Under the pieces are notes generated by a model. That model was not told the DNA's origin. It ran no database searches and saw only the letters and a list, made by a program, of their open reading frames with translations. A stretch of DNA of 64,000 nucleotides, from NCBI GenBank assembly GCA_958296135.2, contig CATQHZ020000001.1:3840001-3904000 (forward strand), given 5' to 3'. Below, piece by piece: positions 1 to 7,366 of the stretch. Each line of letters begins with the position of its first letter. Positions within the stretch are counted from its first letter, which is position 1. The position numbers and the translations under genes were made by a program. The DNA is from an uncultured Poribacteria bacterium. GTDB lineage: Bacteria > Poribacteria > WGA-4E > WGA-3G.

Positions 1-37
1 TAGGTTTGCATGGTTCAGCATCTCCGTTTGTTGCCGG

Positions 38-190
38 CTACAAATGCTTGGCAACGATAGTCTTCAGAATCTGCACGATGCGTTCGGCCTCAAAGATGCC
101 GTTATATCGCTTTGACAGTTGGACAGCGAACGCCGGTTTCTCAGACGCAATCCCGCTAACAACACCTCGAACAAATGTCCAGTTGTCCGC
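38..190 (-). pseudogene. 3' remnant of a paralog of the PD-(D/E)xK-like protein at 23328-23984
   Basis: DNWTFVRGVVSGIASEKPAFAVQLSKRYNGIFEAERIVQILKTIVAKHL aligns with DTWAFVRGIISDIDTEKPTFTLEFSPDYNGISDAEHIVQLLKFIVAKQI at the end of 23328-23984; N-terminal three quarters missing. Confidence 0.75.
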
Positions 191-254
191 TAGTTTGACA
201 TTCTGGCGATGCCTTGCAGGGGTGAAGAATGTCCTCCCCGCCGAACATCGCCGA

Positions 255-1703
255 TTACAAGATGTTCCTCTCTCCGACAGGTATCTTGGGTAACCGGCCC
301 TCAAAGTGCTCCTGAATGAGGTAGAATTGGAGACGCGGATAGGCCATGTCCCACACCGGATGCTGCCACATCCCTGCCAAGAGGGCTTCGCGCCGCATGC
401 CGGGTGTCGGCGGCTTCGTCACAACGAATATTCCCAACTCGGCATCGGCGTTCACCATCGCAGTGCGAAACGCGCGCACCTGGTCCAACGTGAAATTGCC
501 ACCCTTGACTTGTGCCACCATCTTCCCATAGGCACGCCGGCCTTTCACCTTGCCTATCGGAAAGCGATAGGTGCCGTCAATGCCACCATCTGCCACTTTT
601 TTCGCGTTCGATTTGAATTGGAGAACGTGCGTGACGCACCATTCCTCAAACTCACGCGGGTTCTCGCGCGCCAGTTGGAGCGCAGTGTCCACATTCTCCG
701 GCGTGCCGGTGAGGACAATGCTGTCGGTGAGCTGCGGAAAAAACTTCTCCACTTGGAGTTTGACGGCACCCGTCGCAAGATACGTCAGATCGATGCCGAG
801 CCATCGGCGGTTGAGGGCCTCAGCTGCGATGAGCGTGGTGCCGCAGCCGCAGAAGGGATCGAGCACCAAGTCGCCTTCGTTCGTGGCGGCTTGGATAATC
901 CGTTTATAGAGCGCAATCGGCTTCTGCGTCGGATAACCAACCCGCTCTTTCGCCTGCGAGTTGAGATAGGAAATTTCCCACACATCCCGCATCGCCTTCT
1001 GCCGACTCGTATCACTCGTGTAGTCCTGCACGATACTGCCACTCGACTCTATCGTTGTCCTTCGTTTCCCTTTGTGCTTGGACTTAGGGCTATAAGGCTC
1101 TGTCAAAGCGTTAAACTGCACAGACGCTCTATCCTTGGCATAAAAGAGGATGATGTCGTGCATCCTTTGAAATCGACTTGTTGCCCCTGTCCATCGTTGA
1201 TAGGACCAGACGATTTCGTTCATGAAGTTCTCCGGTCCAAAAACTGCATCCATCAGGAGTTTCAGGTAGTGACTCGCTGTCGGATCGCAGTGGAGATAGA
1301 CAGACCCGGTTGGTTTGAGGATACGCCGCATCTCCACGAGACGGATAGCCATCATCGTCAGATACGCCAACATCGGCGTGTCCTTCAAAAACAGCGACAT
1401 TCCTTCTATCACCTCCCCGATTTTGCCACCCACATCGCAGATGAGTACCTCGCATGTCTGCGCCGCAGCGGGGCCCCATGTCCACGTATCAGTGAAGGCT
1501 TTGACAAGGGTATCGGGTTCATTGCCATGTTCATCACGATAGGGCACGAAATAGTCGCGCTTGGAATTGAACGGCGGATCCGTCGCTATGAGATCGAACG
1601 TATCATCGGGACATTTGCGCATCTCCTCCAGGTTATCCCCCCGGATGAGCATGCGCCCCTTGTTTAAAATGTCTATGAAAGCAGCATCTATACTATAGTG
1701 CAT
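255..1703 (-). CDS. Beta-class N6-adenine/N4-cytosine DNA methyltransferase fused to C-terminal Mrr-like restriction endonuclease domain (copy B)
   Basis: Motif IV DPPF precedes YPTQKP and motif I DPFCGCG (beta order); C-terminal EFEEW...ADGGIDG...QVK resembles the Mrr catalytic motif. Confidence 0.9.
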   Translation of the reverse strand: MHYSIDAAFIDILNKGRMLIRGDNLEEMRKCPDDTFDLIATDPPFNSKRDYFVPYRDEHGNEPDTLVKAFTDTWTWGPAAAQTCEVLICDVGGKIGEVIEGMSLFLKDTPMLAYLTMMAIRLVEMRRILKPTGSVYLHCDPTASHYLKLLMDAVFGPENFMNEIVWSYQRWTGATSRFQRMHDIILFYAKDRASVQFNALTEPYSPKSKHKGKRRTTIESSGSIVQDYTSDTSRQKAMRDVWEISYLNSQAKERVGYPTQKPIALYKRIIQAATNEGDLVLDPFCGCGTTLIAAEALNRRWLGIDLTYLATGAVKLQVEKFFPQLTDSIVLTGTPENVDTALQLARENPREFEEWCVTHVLQFKSNAKKVADGGIDGTYRFPIGKVKGRRAYGKMVAQVKGGNFTLDQVRAFRTAMVNADAELGIFVVTKPPTPGMRREALLAGMWQHPVWDMAYPRLQFYLIQEHFEGRLPKIPVGERNIL

Positions 1704-1796
1704 TGGGTAGCCCTCCGCTCAAAAATGCAGTTGATGAACAGAACGGCGCGCGTGGTAAGCGACAGGTTTGCATCGTTCAGAACCTCCTCTTTCGGT

Positions 1797-3248
1797 TTAC
1801 AAGATGTTCCTCTCTCCGACAGGTATCTTGGGTAACCGGCCCTCAAAGTGCTCCTGAATGAGGTAGAATTGAAGGCGCGGGTATTCCATGTCCCACACCG
1901 GATGCTGCCACATCCCTGCCAAGAGGGCTTCGCGCCGCATGCCGGGTGTCGGCGGCTTCGTCACAACGAATATCCCGAGTTCTGCATCGGCGTTCACCAT
2001 CGCAGTGCGAAACGCGCGCACCTGGTCCAACGTGAAATTGCCACCCTTGACTTGCGCCACCATCTTCCCATAGGCACGCCGGCCTTTCACCTTGCCTATC
2101 GGAAAGCGATAGGTGCCGTCAATGCCACCATCTGCCACTTTTTTCGCGTTCGATTTGAATTGGAGGACATGCGTGACGCACCATTCCTCAAACTCACGCG
2201 GGTTCTCGCGCGCCAGTTGGAGCGCAGTGTCCACATTCTCCGGCGTGCCGGTGAGGACAATGCTGTCGGTGAGCTGCGGAAAAAACTTCTCCACTTGGAG
2301 TTTGACGGCACCCGTCGCAAGATACGTCAGATCGATGCCGAGCCATCGGCGGTTGAGGGCCTCAGCTGCGATGAGCGTGGTGCCGCAGCCGCAGAAGGGA
2401 TCGAGCACCAAGTCGCCTTCGTTCGTGGCGGCTTGGATAATCCGTTTATAGAGCGCAATCGGCTTCTGCGTCGGATAACCAACCCGCTCTTTCGCTGTCG
2501 GCGGAATGAAATTGATGTCCTCCCATACGTCGTGCATCAACACACCTTCCCGCTGCGTTTCCCGCTTGATATAGCTGCCATCCTCGCCTCTCAACCGGAT
2601 GACCTTGCCATCAACAACACCGCGAACCGTATCTTCAATATACTTCTCGTTGGCATAAGCCTGTAGCGGTTTCGTAAAGAGATACCGGTCCGTTTTTGAA
2701 TACCAAAAGACGATGTCGTGCATCTTCTGAAACTGCTTGGAGGCAGCTGTCCACCTGCGATAATGCCACACAATCTCATTTCTGAAATTCGTCTGGCCGA
2801 AAACAGCGTCCATGATGAGTTTCAGGTAGTGACTTGCTGTCGGATCGCAGTGGAGATAGACAGACCCGGTTGGTTTGAGGATACGCCGCATCTCCACGAG
2901 ACGGATAGCCATCATCGTCAGATACGCCAACATCGGCGTGTCCTTCAAAAACAGCGACATTCCTTCTATCACCTCCCCGATTTTGCCACCCACATCGCAG
3001 ATCAGCACCTCGCATGTCTGCGCCGCGGCGGGGCCCCATGTCCACGTATCGGTGAAGGCCTTGACGAGGGTATCGGGTTCATTGCCGTGTTCATCACGAT
3101 AGGGCACGAAATAGTCGCGCTTGGAATTGAACGGCGGATCCGTCGCTATGAGATCGAACGTCTCATCGGGACATTTGCGCATCTCCTCCAGGTTATCCCC
3201 CCGGATAAGCGCGCGCCCGCTGTTGAAGAGGTTGTGTGTGGACTGCAT
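1797..3248 (-). CDS. Beta-class DNA methyltransferase fused to Mrr-like endonuclease domain (copy A)
   Basis: Same motifs as copy B; likely ATG at 3248 (MQSTHNLF) directly after the upstream stop at 3250; nearly identical to copy B outside 2496-2816. Confidence 0.9.
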   Translation of the reverse strand: MQSTHNLFNSGRALIRGDNLEEMRKCPDETFDLIATDPPFNSKRDYFVPYRDEHGNEPDTLVKAFTDTWTWGPAAAQTCEVLICDVGGKIGEVIEGMSLFLKDTPMLAYLTMMAIRLVEMRRILKPTGSVYLHCDPTASHYLKLIMDAVFGQTNFRNEIVWHYRRWTAASKQFQKMHDIVFWYSKTDRYLFTKPLQAYANEKYIEDTVRGVVDGKVIRLRGEDGSYIKRETQREGVLMHDVWEDINFIPPTAKERVGYPTQKPIALYKRIIQAATNEGDLVLDPFCGCGTTLIAAEALNRRWLGIDLTYLATGAVKLQVEKFFPQLTDSIVLTGTPENVDTALQLARENPREFEEWCVTHVLQFKSNAKKVADGGIDGTYRFPIGKVKGRRAYGKMVAQVKGGNFTLDQVRAFRTAMVNADAELGIFVVTKPPTPGMRREALLAGMWQHPVWDMEYPRLQFYLIQEHFEGRLPKIPVGERNIL

Positions 3249-3249
3249 T

Positions 3250-5079
3250 TTAAAAGAATCCATTGATGAACAGAACAGCACGCGTCGTATTTGCTTCCTG
3301 AAATCCGGTCGCATACAAGACGTTCGTTTCGTCAAGATAGGTATAGTTATTCGCCCCGAAAAAGTGCGTGATTTCAAAATTTAAGCGGAACGTTCGGCCG
3401 AAATCGTAGTGGATGCCGCCGCCCCAATCAGATAAGTTCGCGCCGAAGTCAAAGACACGGAAGTTTTGACTGTCAAGTGCGGCGTTTCTAAAATCGAGCC
3501 GTACCGTGCTAAAATATGCAAACGCACGTGCTTCTCGGTAACGATAAACATTATGATTCCGAACCCAAATTAAGTCAAGTTGCATTCGGTTATCCCATGA
3601 TGCCTCGGTGGCCCTATCGTCCTGATTGAAGGTGCCGCGGAAGTCCTCAAAATCTTGCGAGCGGTAGTAGTTGGTATCGCTCATCCGGATGTAGGCAAGC
3701 CGATTCGAGAGCGCGAGCCGAAGGTTTTCGTTCAAATCGTAAGCCACGGTAAGTTTCGCATTCGCCATATCGCGGATAATCTCCTGGTCAAAATCGGCCC
3801 TGGTATACAAATCCGCATCCAGATCATCCTGATTGTCTATCTCCACATCCTGCAAGTCGCGAGTGTAACGCAGTTTCAGTTCCGTTTGGAACATCGCGGG
3901 CATCAGCGTCGTCCGCCGCGCATATTTTTTGAAGGTGCGTTCGTCACGATTAAAATAATAGATATTCCCTTTCTTGTCAATTCCTTTCAGTAGGAGTGCC
4001 GCATCCGCTTCCCGTTCTCGCTGGAAGGGGACGAGTAGTTTTTGGGTGAAGTCTCCCGCCGTCGTGAACCTTTGCACGCGTCGGAGGCGATACCGAAAGG
4101 TGCGTCCCTCTGTGGGTAGGAGCATCTTCCCGGCTGTGACACCGGCGTTTAGGAATCGCCTCGGGTCGTCAAGTCGCTGCGGGAGCGTGGAGACGAAATC
4201 CTTTTGATACTTCGCCTTGTCCGCGACGAGGAGCGTTCCGTCTGTCAACGCCGCGATGCGGAATGGCGCGATAAATTGTCCATCCGCGTCGCCATAGTCG
4301 CCAAAAGCGCGCGCAAACGTGCCATCGGCCCCATATTTCAAAACGCGATGTCCCTTTTCATCAACAATATAGAGGTTGCCAGCCGCGTCTACCGTCATAT
4401 CCGCGGGCTGAATCACTTGTCCCGCGCCGGGTTGCGCGATGGCATAGCGGGCAATCGGTTGGCCATCGCTATTCAGTTTGTAAACTACGCCCTTATCACA
4501 AACGTAGAGATTTCCTTCGGCATCCACGCTCAATAAAAAGGAACGCTTCGTGTCGCCGTTTGGGATGATAATAGCGTAGTTGCCCTCGGCATCAAGTCCG
4601 GGGGCAGCGGCTTCAAGGCTTTTCAGTTTCTGGTTCAGAACTTCAAGTGGATAACTGGCGAGAAACGCGCCTTGTGCATCAAATTTGTGGATACCGGGCC
4701 CGTAGTTAAAAATTCTCGGGTTCTCCGTATTCGAGATGTGCATCAACATCCAATCCATGACGTAGATGGCACCATCCACACCGACAGCGATGGCAGTAGG
4801 ATTGATGAAGCGAAACACCCCCGGGTCTTCCATCTGGATGTCAAAGATAAAAGTACCGGTGCTACTGAATTTCTGGATTCTGAAGTTATCAGTATCCGTA
4901 ACGTAGATGGCCCCATCGGGACTGAACGCTATGGACACGGTTTTTGCGAGTTGCCCTTCCTGTTCGCCTTTTCCGCCGAATTCACCGACGAATTCAAACG
5001 TTTGCGCGGCACTCACCCGCAAGGGGATGAGACAGAGTAGGAAAAGCGTTAAGTTTTTTAGTATTGCCTTACGGAGCAT
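3250..5079 (-). CDS. Secreted NHL-repeat beta-propeller protein with probable C-terminal outer-membrane beta-barrel
   Basis: Signal peptide MLRKAILKNLTLFLLCLIPLRVSA; NHL repeats (DGAIYVTDTDNFRIQKF, AGNLYIVDEKGHRVLKY); amphipathic strands in the C-terminal third ending in Phe. Confidence 0.75.
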   Translation of the reverse strand: MLRKAILKNLTLFLLCLIPLRVSAAQTFEFVGEFGGKGEQEGQLAKTVSIAFSPDGAIYVTDTDNFRIQKFSSTGTFIFDIQMEDPGVFRFINPTAIAVGVDGAIYVMDWMLMHISNTENPRIFNYGPGIHKFDAQGAFLASYPLEVLNQKLKSLEAAAPGLDAEGNYAIIIPNGDTKRSFLLSVDAEGNLYVCDKGVVYKLNSDGQPIARYAIAQPGAGQVIQPADMTVDAAGNLYIVDEKGHRVLKYGADGTFARAFGDYGDADGQFIAPFRIAALTDGTLLVADKAKYQKDFVSTLPQRLDDPRRFLNAGVTAGKMLLPTEGRTFRYRLRRVQRFTTAGDFTQKLLVPFQREREADAALLLKGIDKKGNIYYFNRDERTFKKYARRTTLMPAMFQTELKLRYTRDLQDVEIDNQDDLDADLYTRADFDQEIIRDMANAKLTVAYDLNENLRLALSNRLAYIRMSDTNYYRSQDFEDFRGTFNQDDRATEASWDNRMQLDLIWVRNHNVYRYREARAFAYFSTVRLDFRNAALDSQNFRVFDFGANLSDWGGGIHYDFGRTFRLNFEITHFFGANNYTYLDETNVLYATGFQEANTTRAVLFINGFF

Positions 5080-5194
5080 CGTAGTCCTTTCACCGCCATA
5101 ATGTCGCGGGGCCAATCTCGTCAGAGGGTGTCTATACCGCACTGATAAACCTAGCCACATCTCATTAAATGTGCAAGTATCTGTCCAACGTGGG

Positions 5195-6387
5195 TTAGGC
5201 AGTTGCAAAATGGATGAGGGCTTGGTTCGGTTTGATCTTCCGCCTTCCACGCGTCCAGCCTACTCCCGTAGGTGTTACAGACGCTCCAACGGCGTTTCGG
5301 GTCTCATCCGTGCTGGAAGCGACCTGCTTCAGATTTATCGCGGCGTTCACGTCTCTGTCTGCTTCAAACCCACAGACACCGCAATGATAATGGCGTTCCG
5401 ATAGCGACACCTTCTGCTTAACATAACCGCAAGAACTGCATCGCTTGGTAGACGGCCAGAACCTGTCTGCTTCTACAATGCTAATACCACGTCGCACCGC
5501 CTTATATTTCAGTTTGACGAGAAAACCACCGAGGCTTGCATCGGCAAGTGCCTTGCTAAGCTTGCGGTTTTTCATCAAACCTTTGACGGAGAGGCTTTCT
5601 ATACCGAGAGCAGAGATACCTTGCAGAATGCGATGTGTTGCTTGGTGATGCGCATCGCTACGGATATTCGTGATTCGCATAAGCAAACGTGCTAGCAATG
5701 CCTTCGCCTTCCACCATCCACCTGAGCGGTATTGCTTGCGTGAAAGGCTTTGACTCAGACGTTTCAATTTGCGTTCCTGCGTGCGTAAGGCACGAGGATT
5801 TTCATAAACCGTGCCATCGTCCATCGTGGCGAGGGCAGATATACCGACATCGCAGCCTGCTACGGGCAGGGCTGACGTATCGGGCGGTTCGGGTGCGTCT
5901 ACGTCAAAGAGCATACTGATAAACCACCTGTGAGCTGTCCGTGAAATGACAGCACGCCTGACAGAACCTGTCCAGCGAGACGTATCTTGCCGATTTTCGG
6001 GAGGATGACGTGTGTGCTATCCTCCGATACCTTGACGCTATCCACGCCGTTGTCAATCTGAAACGATGAACGGCTGTTATGCTTCTTCCGCTTCGGGAAG
6101 TTATTCTGTCCCGATTTCCAACGTTGGATAGCGTCATGGAAGTTGTGAATGGCGTTCTTCCCTGCATTTTGTGACAGGTCACAAATGTCGGGGAATACCT
6201 CACGCTTACGTTGATTAAACAGCTTCTTCAAATCGTAAACCGAACGGAATTCGCCTGCTTCGAGACCTGCTTTGAAATCGGAATGTGCTGCATTATAGGC
6301 ATTCCGTGCGAAGTCGCAATGCTGATTGAGCAGCTGCCGCTGCGCCTGAGTCGGTTGAAGTGCTGTCTTGTGGGCTAGAAGTGCCAT
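5195..6387 (-). pseudogene. tnpB: TnpB RNA-guided endonuclease, frameshifted near 5975
   Basis: N-terminal ORF 5899-6387 (AHKTALQPT HTH, FPKRK, LPKIG); C-terminal ORF has RuvC DVG, E (GIESL), CxxC/CxxC zinc finger and DRDVNAA; the linking VISRTAHRWFISM is in the C-terminal frame. Confidence 0.9.
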
Positions 6388-6389
6388 CT

Positions 6390-6840
6390 GTGAGTTCCAG
6401 TTCGATTTGCTTTTGCGGATTCGGCGTAGCGCCAGCCGTTTACGTCTTGCGCGAAGACGTGCTGTTTGTTATTACAAACAGCACTACGCCGAATCCGAAA
6501 GGAGGCGTTGTGTGCCGCCGTGAGTGCCTCGATCGGCTTATGCTGGCGGAAACCACTGACGCGGACATAACACATCGGAGGCGCATCGAGGGATTTCAGA
6601 CCATCAGGGCACCTGTGGCGTCGCAGCGAGTGCCACCTTTCGTTTTCCGTGCAGGTAGCAATTCGCCTGTCTCCTCTGCCGATTTTGACGGAGGTTGTTT
6701 GGTACTAAAAACAACCGAAGATGTGTTTTTTGGAAACCTTCGCAAAAAACACTGCGTCAAAATCGGACCACCTACGCAGCGTCTCTCGTGGTGCCGAGTC
6801 ACTCGGCAGCCTCACCCATCTTAACTCTTATGTTTTCCAT
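6390..6840 (-). pseudogene. tnpA: IS607-family transposase TnpA (MerR HTH + serine recombinase), degraded
   Basis: Manual translation across frames: MENIRVKMGEAAE*LGTT..ETLRRW / EETGELLPARKTKGGTR / DAPPMCYVRVS; in-frame stop, frameshifts, insertion and a large deletion. Confidence 0.8.
6677..6767. mobile_element. 91-bp MITE-like insert with 12-bp inverted repeats inside tnpA
   Basis: CCGATTTTGACG at 6679-6690 and its reverse complement at 6755-6766; removal restores RRW|EET in frame. Confidence 0.7.
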
Positions 6841-6925
6841 ATCTCTACGTTATACCCCATTTTTAGAGACACTGCAAATAAAAAATGCAGTTGATGTAGA
6901 GGATGACGGATTTAACCCGATATGT

Positions 6926-7366
6926 CTAGGTTATTACGCACTGCACCGAGCCCCGTTTAAATTCGGATGCCTTTTTTCGGATGTTATCCAGAATACCGTT
7001 CACAAACTTCGGCGAATCCGGAGTGCTATAGGTTTTGGCAATCTCAACCGCCTCGTTGATGGAGGTGGCCGCGTCGATTTCCTCACAATAGAGGATTTCA
7101 TACGTCGCGCATCGCAGGATAGACAGGTCGACGACAGGCATCCGGTGCAACTTCCAATTTTTCGACGTGGCTTGAATCACCGCATCAATGGCCTCCCTAT
7201 TTGCAACGGTATTTTGAACGAGCATCGTCGCGAACGGCCGAAATTCCGTTGGCGTTCCATGGTTCTGCCAGAACCTGTTGATGACATCTTGCACGGGGGC
7301 ATCTGTCAACTGAATCTGATATAATAGCTGCATCGCGATGATGCGCGATTTTCTCCGAGACGACAT
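6926..7366 (-). CDS. nusB: Transcription antitermination factor NusB
   Basis: RRKSRIIAMQLLYQ, DLSILR, INEAVEIAKTY, FVNGILD motifs. Confidence 0.97.
   Translation of the reverse strand: MSSRRKSRIIAMQLLYQIQLTDAPVQDVINRFWQNHGTPTEFRPFATMLVQNTVANREAIDAVIQATSKNWKLHRMPVVDLSILRCATYEILYCEEIDAATSINEAVEIAKTYSTPDSPKFVNGILDNIRKKASEFKRGSVQCVIT

Follow-up and report, generated by a model that had tools for sequence, protein, structure and literature searches.

A head-to-tail tandem of two methylase-Mrr fusion genes with different target-recognition cassettes in a sponge symbiont near Candidatus Poribacteria: putative single-chain restriction-modification enzymes

Exchange of target-recognition-domain (TRD) cassettes is textbook knowledge for the Type I, Type III and Type IIG restriction-modification (R-M) systems of a few pathogens. 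It has reportedly been found in Type III mod alleles of Haemophilus influenzae and in Type I and Type IIG genes of Helicobacter pylori. Described here are two tandem genes, A and B, in a stretch of 64,000 nucleotides (nt) (the window, G000:C1:3840001-3904000) of the genome of an uncultured sponge symbiont near Candidatus Poribacteria (G000; 5.19 Mb, 4 contigs). Each encodes a beta-class DNA methyltransferase (methylase) with a central putative TRD and a C-terminal Mrr-type nuclease domain, an architecture that is enzymologically unstudied. TRD-cassette exchange itself is known; A and B are a well-documented new variant of it in this architecture. The two genes are nearly identical around strongly divergent TRDs. 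With a probability of about 0.5 they are BtgZI-like (Type IIC) single-chain R-M enzymes, whose heteroallelic tandem would give the cell two specificities simultaneously. The locus is a junction-level record of two alleles stacked in one genome, by which tandems, collapse and order swaps become directly testable. Two other genomes of the same genus, G001 and G007, were compared with G000.

In H. pylori Type III mod genes, TRDs pass from gene to gene and from strain to strain through homologous recombination in conserved flanks, according to the abstract of PMC3467074. A and B resemble Type III mod genes in the beta-class methylase, in the central TRD between conserved blocks and in the disagreement of TRD and scaffold histories; they differ in the fused nuclease-like domain and in the stacking of two alleles head to tail with a junction scar. 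No res helicase-nuclease gene lies beside A/B, which are flanked by an NHL-repeat gene on the upstream side and by small PD-DExK genes on the downstream side. Typical Type IIC/IIG enzymes have an N-terminal PD-(D/E)XK nuclease, a gamma-class (NPPY/F/W) methylase and a C-terminal or separate specificity module, according to parts of the Pingoud-Wilson-Wende review (PMC4081073). A and B, with a beta-class methylase holding an internal TRD and then the nuclease domain, do not fit this layout, and only the atypical BtgZI is similar. BtgZI is given in passages of the same review as an active Type IIC enzyme with an N-terminal alpha-class methylase and a C-terminal PD-(D/E)XK variant that has Q for E. 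Like A and B, BtgZI (GCGATG 10/14) is one chain with the methylase N-terminal and PD-QxK C-terminal; unlike them, it is alpha-class and not beta-class (DPPF before the TRD, motif I after it), and its activity is shown, the comparison being by description only.

Type IIG/IIL enzymes of the MmeI family are said to use one recognition module for both activities and to change specificity in one step. They share with the arrangement proposed for A/B the single-chain R-M enzyme with a common recognition module, and differ in the N-terminal PD-ExK nuclease, gamma-class methylase and C-terminal TRD. The nuclease motifs (F)E, D-x-G-h-D and Q-x-K are common to A/B, the Type ISP enzymes LlaGI and LlaBIII and Escherichia coli Mrr; LlaGI differs from A/B in its N-terminal Mrr domain, its helicase motor and its gamma-class methylase. 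E. coli Mrr, unlike A/B, is a winged-helix reader of modified DNA without a methylase (passages of PMC12707154). Solitary beta-class methylases (8urk/9c3s, M.RsrI, CcrM, M.MboIIA) are the best solved matches of the methylase part, and none covers the Mrr-type tail. Unlike invertible Type I hsdS shufflons, in which inverted repeats separate alternative TRDs and a site-specific recombinase is present, the A/B copies are direct repeats, the only inverted repeats being 17-nt arms in the conserved flanks. No recombinase is adjacent to A/B; the nearest mobile gene is a split TnpB gene at 5195-6387.

The genes and their cassettes are as follows.

255..1703, minus strand: gene A, beta-class DNA methyltransferase with C-terminal Mrr-type nuclease domain, 482 amino acids (aa), leader type 1, TRD-A (open reading frame (ORF) and Pfam).
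1797..3248 from the ATG at 3248, minus strand: gene B, paralogue of A, 483 aa, leader type 2, TRD-B (ORF and Pfam).
954..1256, minus strand: TRD-A cassette, 303 bp, aa 150-250 of A, GC 0.49.
2496..2816, minus strand: TRD-B cassette, 321 bp, aa 145-251 of B, GC 0.49.

Both minus-strand ORFs are intact. The proteins are identical at 405 of 482 positions (BLASTP), and codon-by-codon comparison confines their differences to the leader (first 18 and 13 aa, respectively), the middle segment and very little else. Residue changes outside leader and middle segment are D34E, L150I (at the border) and A454E. The first-pass annotation of the window had counted about three such changes beyond the first ~15 aa of two near-identical same-strand genes, and had placed the divergent segment at 954-1256 (303 bp) and 2496-2816 (321 bp); the comparison reproduces exactly these coordinates. 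The N flank (aa 19-149) has one nonsynonymous and nine synonymous differences, all of them outside codons 88-142. In the C flank (aa 251-482), A454E is the one amino acid change, beside ten synonymous differences. DNA identity of the flanks is 93-100% per 75-nt window, and they form direct repeats with spacings of 1542 and 1560 nt (repeat search). TRD-A and TRD-B have 38% protein identity and 33-65% DNA identity per 75-nt window, and their GC content is lower than that of the flanks (0.55-0.58). The sharp borders claimed earlier are confirmed on one side only: the 3' border of the divergent segment (AKERVGYPTQKP) is abrupt, with 324 nt perfectly identical from there on, and at the 5' border identity fades across ~40 codons, with the conserved motifs NEIVW and MHDI still within.

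The frame of gene B is open as far as a TTG at 3377, overlapping the 3' end of the upstream NHL-repeat gene. Its start is probably the ATG at 3248, which begins 1 nt past the stop of that gene, as the G007 orthologue starts with MQSIHN right after the NHL stop. Translation signals differ: a GGAGGG lies 8 nt ahead of the start of gene A (type 1), and gene B (type 2) has no Shine-Dalgarno sequence. The position of the B start, 1 nt past the NHL stop and without a Shine-Dalgarno sequence, suggests coupling to the upstream gene.

Among 61 family genomes searched (G000 included), near-full-length DNA matches (~88%) were found only in G001 and G007. Both are syntenic with G000 on either side, with the NHL-repeat gene upstream and PD-DExK genes and a second NHL gene downstream, and each has one methylase gene at this locus. 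The single gene of G007 has TRD-A (97% aa identical), that of G001 has TRD-B (93% aa identical), and their flanks are 88-94% identical to the A/B flanks. Per 75-nt window of DNA, the A/B flanks are 71-96% identical to either relative and the TRDs 87-97% to the orthologous allele. The two single genes at one locus bear out the earlier view of the middle segment as a replaceable TRD cassette. In G000, leader type 1 (MH..DAAFI..LNKG, with a GGAGG ribosome-binding site) precedes TRD-A and leader type 2 (MQS.HN, start 1 nt past the NHL stop) precedes TRD-B; the pairing is the reverse in the relatives, type 1 standing before TRD-B in G001 and type 2 before TRD-A in G007. Every combination (1A, 2B, 1B and 2A) is thus represented, and leader and TRD must have recombined.

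By the Nei-Gojobori method, A and B have a synonymous divergence (dS) of 0.11 for the N flank and 0.12 for the Mrr part, and of 0 for the C-terminal methylase part; the flanks are nearly identical, and the synonymous sites of the TRD are saturated. Between species, dS is 0.38-0.98 in the flanks and 0.23-0.34 in orthologous TRD alleles. The scaffold is homogenised, as the first-pass annotation had proposed, to 0-0.12 within the genome against 0.38-0.98 between species. Across species TRD dS lies below flank dS, so the TRDs look more recently shared than their scaffolds. Where a flank substitution is private to one copy, B agrees with both relatives at 17 sites and A at 5. A search for donors of the small clusters of substitutions private to A (A nt 1255-1280, 1352-1380 and 170-215) gave no further exact copy in the genome or in L039/L040.

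Four sequencing runs contain 0.88-0.89 of the sampled words. Three of them (X6, X8 and X9) were analysed, all from one sample, which is probably the source of the assembly. In X6 and X8, a contig of 210-211 nt over 1617-1826 crosses the B-A junction (J1), leading from the private leader of A to the 3' end of B; it matches without any difference in X6 and carries an insertion of 1 nt in X8. Junction depth is 109 in X6, 19 in X8 and, at position 1741, 31 in X9, against 104, 21 and 28-43 in single-copy neighbours. In the same order of runs, depth is 101, 22 and 31 for the TRD-A contig (924-1305) and 110, 23 and 36 for the TRD-B contig (2466-2865), both 1x, and 190, 36 and 54 (~2x) for the shared 610-nt flank contig. 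The A-B tandem is real and no assembly artefact. Run X1, from another study, gave only pieces of ~20-30 nt of conserved sequence and is uninformative on habitat or alleles; runs containing a small fraction of the words carry sponge or marine metagenome labels.

Further members of the family are numerous in G000, where 61 ORFs of at least 200 aa match A (phmmer) and 23 are full-length, spanning from residue <=40 to >=460. At E <= 1e-40, G000 has at least 26 matches, 3 of the 60 other genomes of the phylum exceed 9 (27, 18 and 13), and 41 of the 61 genomes have any. At a second syntenic locus (L041, G001:C1:466000-480000; L042, G007:C97:10000-23000; G000:C1:2557589-2559080), TRDs of 98 and 116 aa follow each other in G001, the order is 116 and 98 in G007, and only the 116-aa TRD is present in G000. 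The TRDs of this locus are 94-97% identical across genomes; its flanks are 93/97% (G001) and 91/90% (G007) identical within a genome and 86-90% between same-TRD genes across genomes. Exchange or collapse between copies, as envisaged in the first-pass annotation, fits the swapped order and copy loss at this second locus and the four leader/TRD combinations at the A/B locus. A triple tandem at G000:C1:3699348-3704360 consists of three abutting same-strand methylase-Mrr genes of another subfamily, with N flanks of 92-99% DNA identity, TRD regions of 20-53% and a mosaic C part.

TRD alleles were surveyed in 120 proteins, the genus and family genomes and 79 genome loci, and flanks were compared with TRDs in 143 members of the methylase-Mrr family (10,153 pairs). 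Across the family, closely similar scaffolds often carry unrelated TRDs: TRDs are less than 50% identical in 61% of the 155 pairs with 90-95% identical flanks and in 19% of the 81 pairs with flanks at least 95% identical. Conversely arranged are 19 pairs with TRDs at least 80% identical on flanks at most 72% identical. TRD lengths cluster in classes from 79 to 176 aa. Elsewhere, tandems are a minority, with a second same-strand copy within 4 kb at 6 of 159 fetched loci. The neighbour genes of A/B were not found in 21 other Poribacteria loci, and synteny is limited to the genus relatives. In a metagenome contig scan for close relatives of A, identity did not exceed 65%, or 46% for full-length matches.

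Five diverged paralogues (73-85% nt identity; G000:C1:195266-196704, 669958-671432, 1452202-1453679, 2953544-2955039, 4145401-4146865 and 600268-601731 cover these and the next) are split in two frames at the same codon, with a G9 run exactly there. A sixth copy has G10 in the same context and one intact ORF of 487 aa. They are either slipped-strand phase-variable methylases or systematic homopolymer under-calling in the assembly. Of the 86 G/C runs of 8 nt or longer in the genome, 20 fall inside methylase-family ORFs or at most 400 nt away from them; these ORFs make up 2.7% of the genome. The exact G9/G10 context was not found in G001, G007, G003 or G009. Phase-variable methylases (phasevarions) carry a simple-sequence repeat within the gene or directly ahead of it; A and B have no such tract: none of the 20 methylase-associated runs is in either gene, and the repeat search gave flank repeats only.

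The junctions of the tandem and the genes that contributed to them are the following.

1758..1796, minus strand: first part of J1, native sequence downstream of the methylase gene, with the ribosome-binding site and first ~6 codons of the PD-DExK gene (aligned to the G001/G007 post-stop sequence).
1719..1757, minus strand: second part of J1, G001-like relic of the NHL-repeat gene, its last ~39 nt (TTRAVLFINCIF*) (alignment).
191..254, minus strand: J2, 64-nt filler past the stop of A, without match in the relatives or the rest of the genome (blastn-short).
41..193, minus strand: truncated PD-DExK gene, residues ~166-216 left; the full gene is here in the relatives.
3250..5250, minus strand: upstream NHL-repeat gene, donor of the J1 relic (ORF, Pfam).

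The NHL relic is followed by the GGAGGG ribosome-binding site at 1704-1718 and the start of A, and it is picked up by the repeat search as a direct repeat, 1731-1757 = 3263-3289, at 89%. Downstream of A, ~0.5 kb present in both G001 and G007 is missing. The 64-nt filler seemed to resemble the downstream sequence of G007 weakly, which blastn-short did not confirm. As read from the alignments, J1 is a head-to-tail scar joining both ends of a G001-like unit. Two TRD alleles, each single at this locus in G001 or G007, would have been joined head to tail by the illegitimate junction J1, with J2 as an indel scar. One insertion-deletion event could yield both junctions, a fragment 'NHL tail - gene 1A - 64 nt' replacing PD-DExK codons ~6-165 beside a resident 2B gene; alternatively, a tandem duplication could have been followed by allele replacement and deletion. 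The near-identical flanks would reflect a join recent relative to the divergence of the genus and/or gene conversion up to the heterology border, and the same homology would permit collapse to one copy or TRD exchange. Perfect identity beside the TRDs with differences further out is not predicted by a simple recent import and tells against it; later gene conversion halting at heterology would explain the pattern better.

Several other origins of the locus may be considered. Two strain alleles of a single-copy gene might have been placed in series by the assembly, given that the relatives are single-copy with either TRD and that genomes assembled from metagenomes may combine strains. If two single-copy strains co-existed, however, the TRDs would be at half depth and no junction contig would appear; the reads show TRDs at 1x and not 0.5x, flanks at ~2x, a junction contig at single-copy depth in X6 and X8 and single-copy depth at 1741 in X9; the junction itself, a composite of PD-DExK start and NHL tail, is in no single-copy allele. 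Mis-assembly, which the first-pass annotation had named as what might undo its reading, is rejected on these grounds and retains next to no probability. A redundant duplicate in decay, with the middle segment diverged in place, is very improbable. Copy A does carry more of the private flank substitutions (the 17 sites at which the relatives are B-like, against 5), but both ORFs are intact, 19 of the flank differences are synonymous and 2 nonsynonymous, and TRD synonymous sites are saturated on nearly identical flanks; each TRD is 93-97% identical to the orthologue of another species, so it did not diverge in place. It is also possible, although unlikely, that the tandem is old and predates the three species, its flanks being kept alike by gene conversion and one copy being lost in each of G001 and G007. 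This concerns the origin only. Such a history would agree with the dS of the A-B flanks far below that of orthologous flanks, with the second locus, where flanks are more alike within a genome than between same-TRD genes across genomes, and with the G007 gene, whose 2A form is exactly what would result if 2B-J-1A underwent a deletion through the N flanks. A simple deletion from 2B-J-1A cannot produce 1B, both relatives are single-copy at the locus, and the 1B gene of G001 lies between an uninterrupted NHL gene on its upstream side and an intact PD-DExK gene on the other, the ends of such an arrangement being what J1 is built from. Sequence comparison shows in this way that the unjoined arrangement is older than the junction, which argues against an ancient tandem merely lost by the relatives.

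The domains of both proteins were assigned by Pfam, which places a methylase and a nuclease-like domain in one polypeptide. N6_N4_Mtase (PF01555; cut-off 26.7 bits) matches residues 37-306 of A (E 2.8e-47, 161.9 bits) and 32-307 of B (E 1.8e-46, 159.3 bits). Mrr_cat (PF04471; cut-off 21) matches residues 346-440 of A (26.2 bits) and 347-441 of B (26.6 bits). PADLOC gives generic Type II and Type III methylase models only, and the adenine-methylase models of NCBIfam match A/B far under their cut-offs. Motif IV DPPF (A aa 42-45), the TRD and the S-adenosylmethionine-binding motif I DPFCGCG (aa 282-288) follow each other in beta-class order, and both motifs are invariant in 49 of 49 aligned relatives. 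D instead of S at motif IV points toward N6-adenine, and the methylase of A/B is probably of the N6-adenine type. Sequence matches to solved structures begin with 8urk/9c3s (1.5e-23) and continue with M.RsrI, CcrM, a Mod subunit and M.MboIIA, down to 9e-12. The same search of the PDB gave no match past residue ~331 of A, that is, none for the Mrr-type tail.

258..701, minus strand: Mrr-type PD-QxK nuclease-like domain of A, aa 335-482 (motif set, fold search).
1800..2243, minus strand: Mrr-type nuclease-like domain of B, aa 336-483, one residue (A454E) off A.

The C-terminal 148 aa of A hold the complete Mrr motif set, namely motif I F352-E353, motif II D372-G-G-I-D376 and motif III Q398-V-K400, together with the Asp four residues upstream in motif II that is an Mrr-type mark. 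The three motifs show no variation among the aligned relatives (49/49), and their residues are >=90-98% conserved across 143 sequences, including the ~40%-identical paralogues of this genome. Parts of the paper of Smith, Josephsen and Szczelkun (PMC2790908) define the Mrr-family set as (F)E, D-x-G-h-D with the extra Asp, and Q-x-K, and state that cleavage by LlaGI requires D74, D78 and K94, the equivalents of D, D and K of A. A and B are under purifying selection, Mrr domain included: dN/dS (Nei-Gojobori) is 0.03-0.17 in every part and 0.07-0.17 in the Mrr domain. In a fold search with residues 346-482, PD-(D/E)XK folds were matched (7eu0_E, Z 8.3; 1xmx, 6.5; Can2 (8bao), 5.9; 1y88, 5.8; LlaBIII nuclease domain (4xqk), 5.7; AspBHI (4oc8), 5.5; Avs4 (8dgf), 4.6), and these model-based matches are consistent with a PD-(D/E)XK nuclease. 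In a protein atlas the Mrr tail adjoins clusters of stand-alone Mrr_cat proteins (score 0.95).

The closest named records of A are from metagenome-assembled genomes (MAGs) of Candidatus Poribacteria, and farther matches are in MAGs of many bacterial and archaeal groups; more than 8000 proteins matched in one search. A domain search with the tail gave 989 representative clusters, 168 of them at E <= 1e-10. Among the best 150 of the 989, motif II is present in 128, and 48 are at least 440 aa long, 40 of these with both methylase motifs. Full-length homologues also occur in 7 plasmid records. Three phage and plasmid homologues were inspected (L123, L124, L125): two are in phages, beside a serine integrase or CI-like repressor, and one is on a plasmid, between zeta-toxin and Fic/VbhA genes. 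All three retain D372, G374, I375, D376 and K400, and E353 is replaced by Q in one. Integrase, repressor and toxin-antitoxin neighbours are such as defence genes often have and were therefore counted for the R-M reading.

As R-M enzymes, A and B would consist of an N-terminal beta-class methyltransferase, a central TRD setting the target and a C-terminal Mrr-family (PD-QxK) nuclease domain. One TRD would steer both methylation of the cell's own DNA and cutting of unmarked DNA, so that TRDs could be exchanged freely without killing the cell. The two TRDs would recognise different sequences, and the Mrr tail would cut DNA. This reading is preferred on four grounds: BtgZI as a precedent, invariant catalytic residues, purifying selection, and genomic contexts like those of defence genes. 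Several observations weigh against it. NA-iREase1, a model of an inactive REase fold, scores 24.8 (A) and 25.1 (B) bits, nearly at the level of Mrr_cat and below its own cut-off of 27. The AlphaFold model from 49 sequences is poor (mean pLDDT 58.6), with residues ~390-470 reaching 70-91 (a single-sequence model has pLDDT 33.9), and the fold-match Z scores of 4.6-8.3 are only middling, a range common for such searches. Full-length homologues (>=80% coverage, 36-41% identity) occur in 28 phage records, Q398 is replaced by S in two of the three inspected homologues, and with 23 full-length paralogues a single genome would have to sustain a great many restriction activities simultaneously. No published activity of the methylase-Mrr family was found in a literature search without subscription journals and REBASE, nor was the fusion family itself, phase variation in sponge symbionts included; the fusion is likewise unmentioned in passages of PMC12707154, PMC8546597 and 10.1101/2023.12.13.571470. 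HVO_A0006 (PMC4389544), considered as a relative, is a Type IIG N-terminal fragment and not relevant.

A rival account, somewhat less probable than even, is that A and B are orphan methyltransferases, the Mrr-like tail being a DNA-binding or other non-restricting module, and that the locus diversifies the methylome, for epigenetic regulation or as a shield from restriction by others, and does not serve defence. The first-pass annotation had allowed for either kind of locus, R-M or epigenetic. In phages, a plain self-protecting methylase is the usual reading, and the phage and plasmid homologues are annotated just 'DNA methyltransferase'. An orphan methylase would accord with the 28 phage records, with the 61 family ORFs and 23 full-length genes, with the close scores of NA-iREase1 and Mrr_cat and with the negative outcome of the literature search for an activity; a separate nuclease partner is neither needed nor seen, and TRD swaps would be equally harmless. 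Pure DNA binding, on the other hand, would not need three Mrr motifs and an extra Asp that are invariant in 49/49 and kept in distant paralogues; the Mrr domain has a dN/dS of 0.07-0.17, and enzymes with this domain order can cut DNA, as BtgZI shows. Should the tail prove to be an active nuclease, a sizeable class of compact restriction enzymes with swappable recognition modules would have been overlooked. Otherwise, some other reason must be sought why a methylase keeps a complete nuclease active site so strictly conserved. A wider proposal, doubtful at present, takes the methylase-Mrr fusions as a new, unrecognised single-chain R-M class with a genome-wide specificity network: the 23 full-length genes would have their TRDs reshuffled between loci and stacked in tandems, and one subfamily would be switched by poly-G tracts. 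Beta-class methylases are commonly dimeric. With the identical A/B scaffolds, A-B hybrids with a third, composite specificity could therefore also arise, like the half-site combinations of Type I HsdS.

Promoter and terminator scans of 1-5600 were no better than shuffles (6 vs 3.8 +/- 2.3 and 4 vs 6.3 +/- 2.1, respectively). The split TnpB gene at 5195-6387 (minus strand) is an IS605-type OrfB/TnpB gene in two ORFs, one with HTH_OrfB_IS605 and the other with OrfB_IS605 and a Cas12f1-like TNB domain; the stretch 5061-6971 of the window is without counterpart at the syntenic locus of G001 and G007, so the insertion is private to G000. The small PD-DExK genes belong to a 216-aa family with a PD-(D/E)XK signature (EADG...HEAKRG), no Pfam family and one PADLOC match, 'PD_DExK, CRISPR-associated' (E 4e-11). 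They were considered as a restriction partner and rejected: tblastn gave 9 hits in 5 places of the genome, and only the A/B locus is within 3 kb of a methylase paralogue. Their copies stand in tandem at window 41-193 and G000:C1:3838669-3840011 (L043:10669-12011), one intact, one frameshifted and one truncated. Three further copies lie in a row at C1:4274934-4277233.

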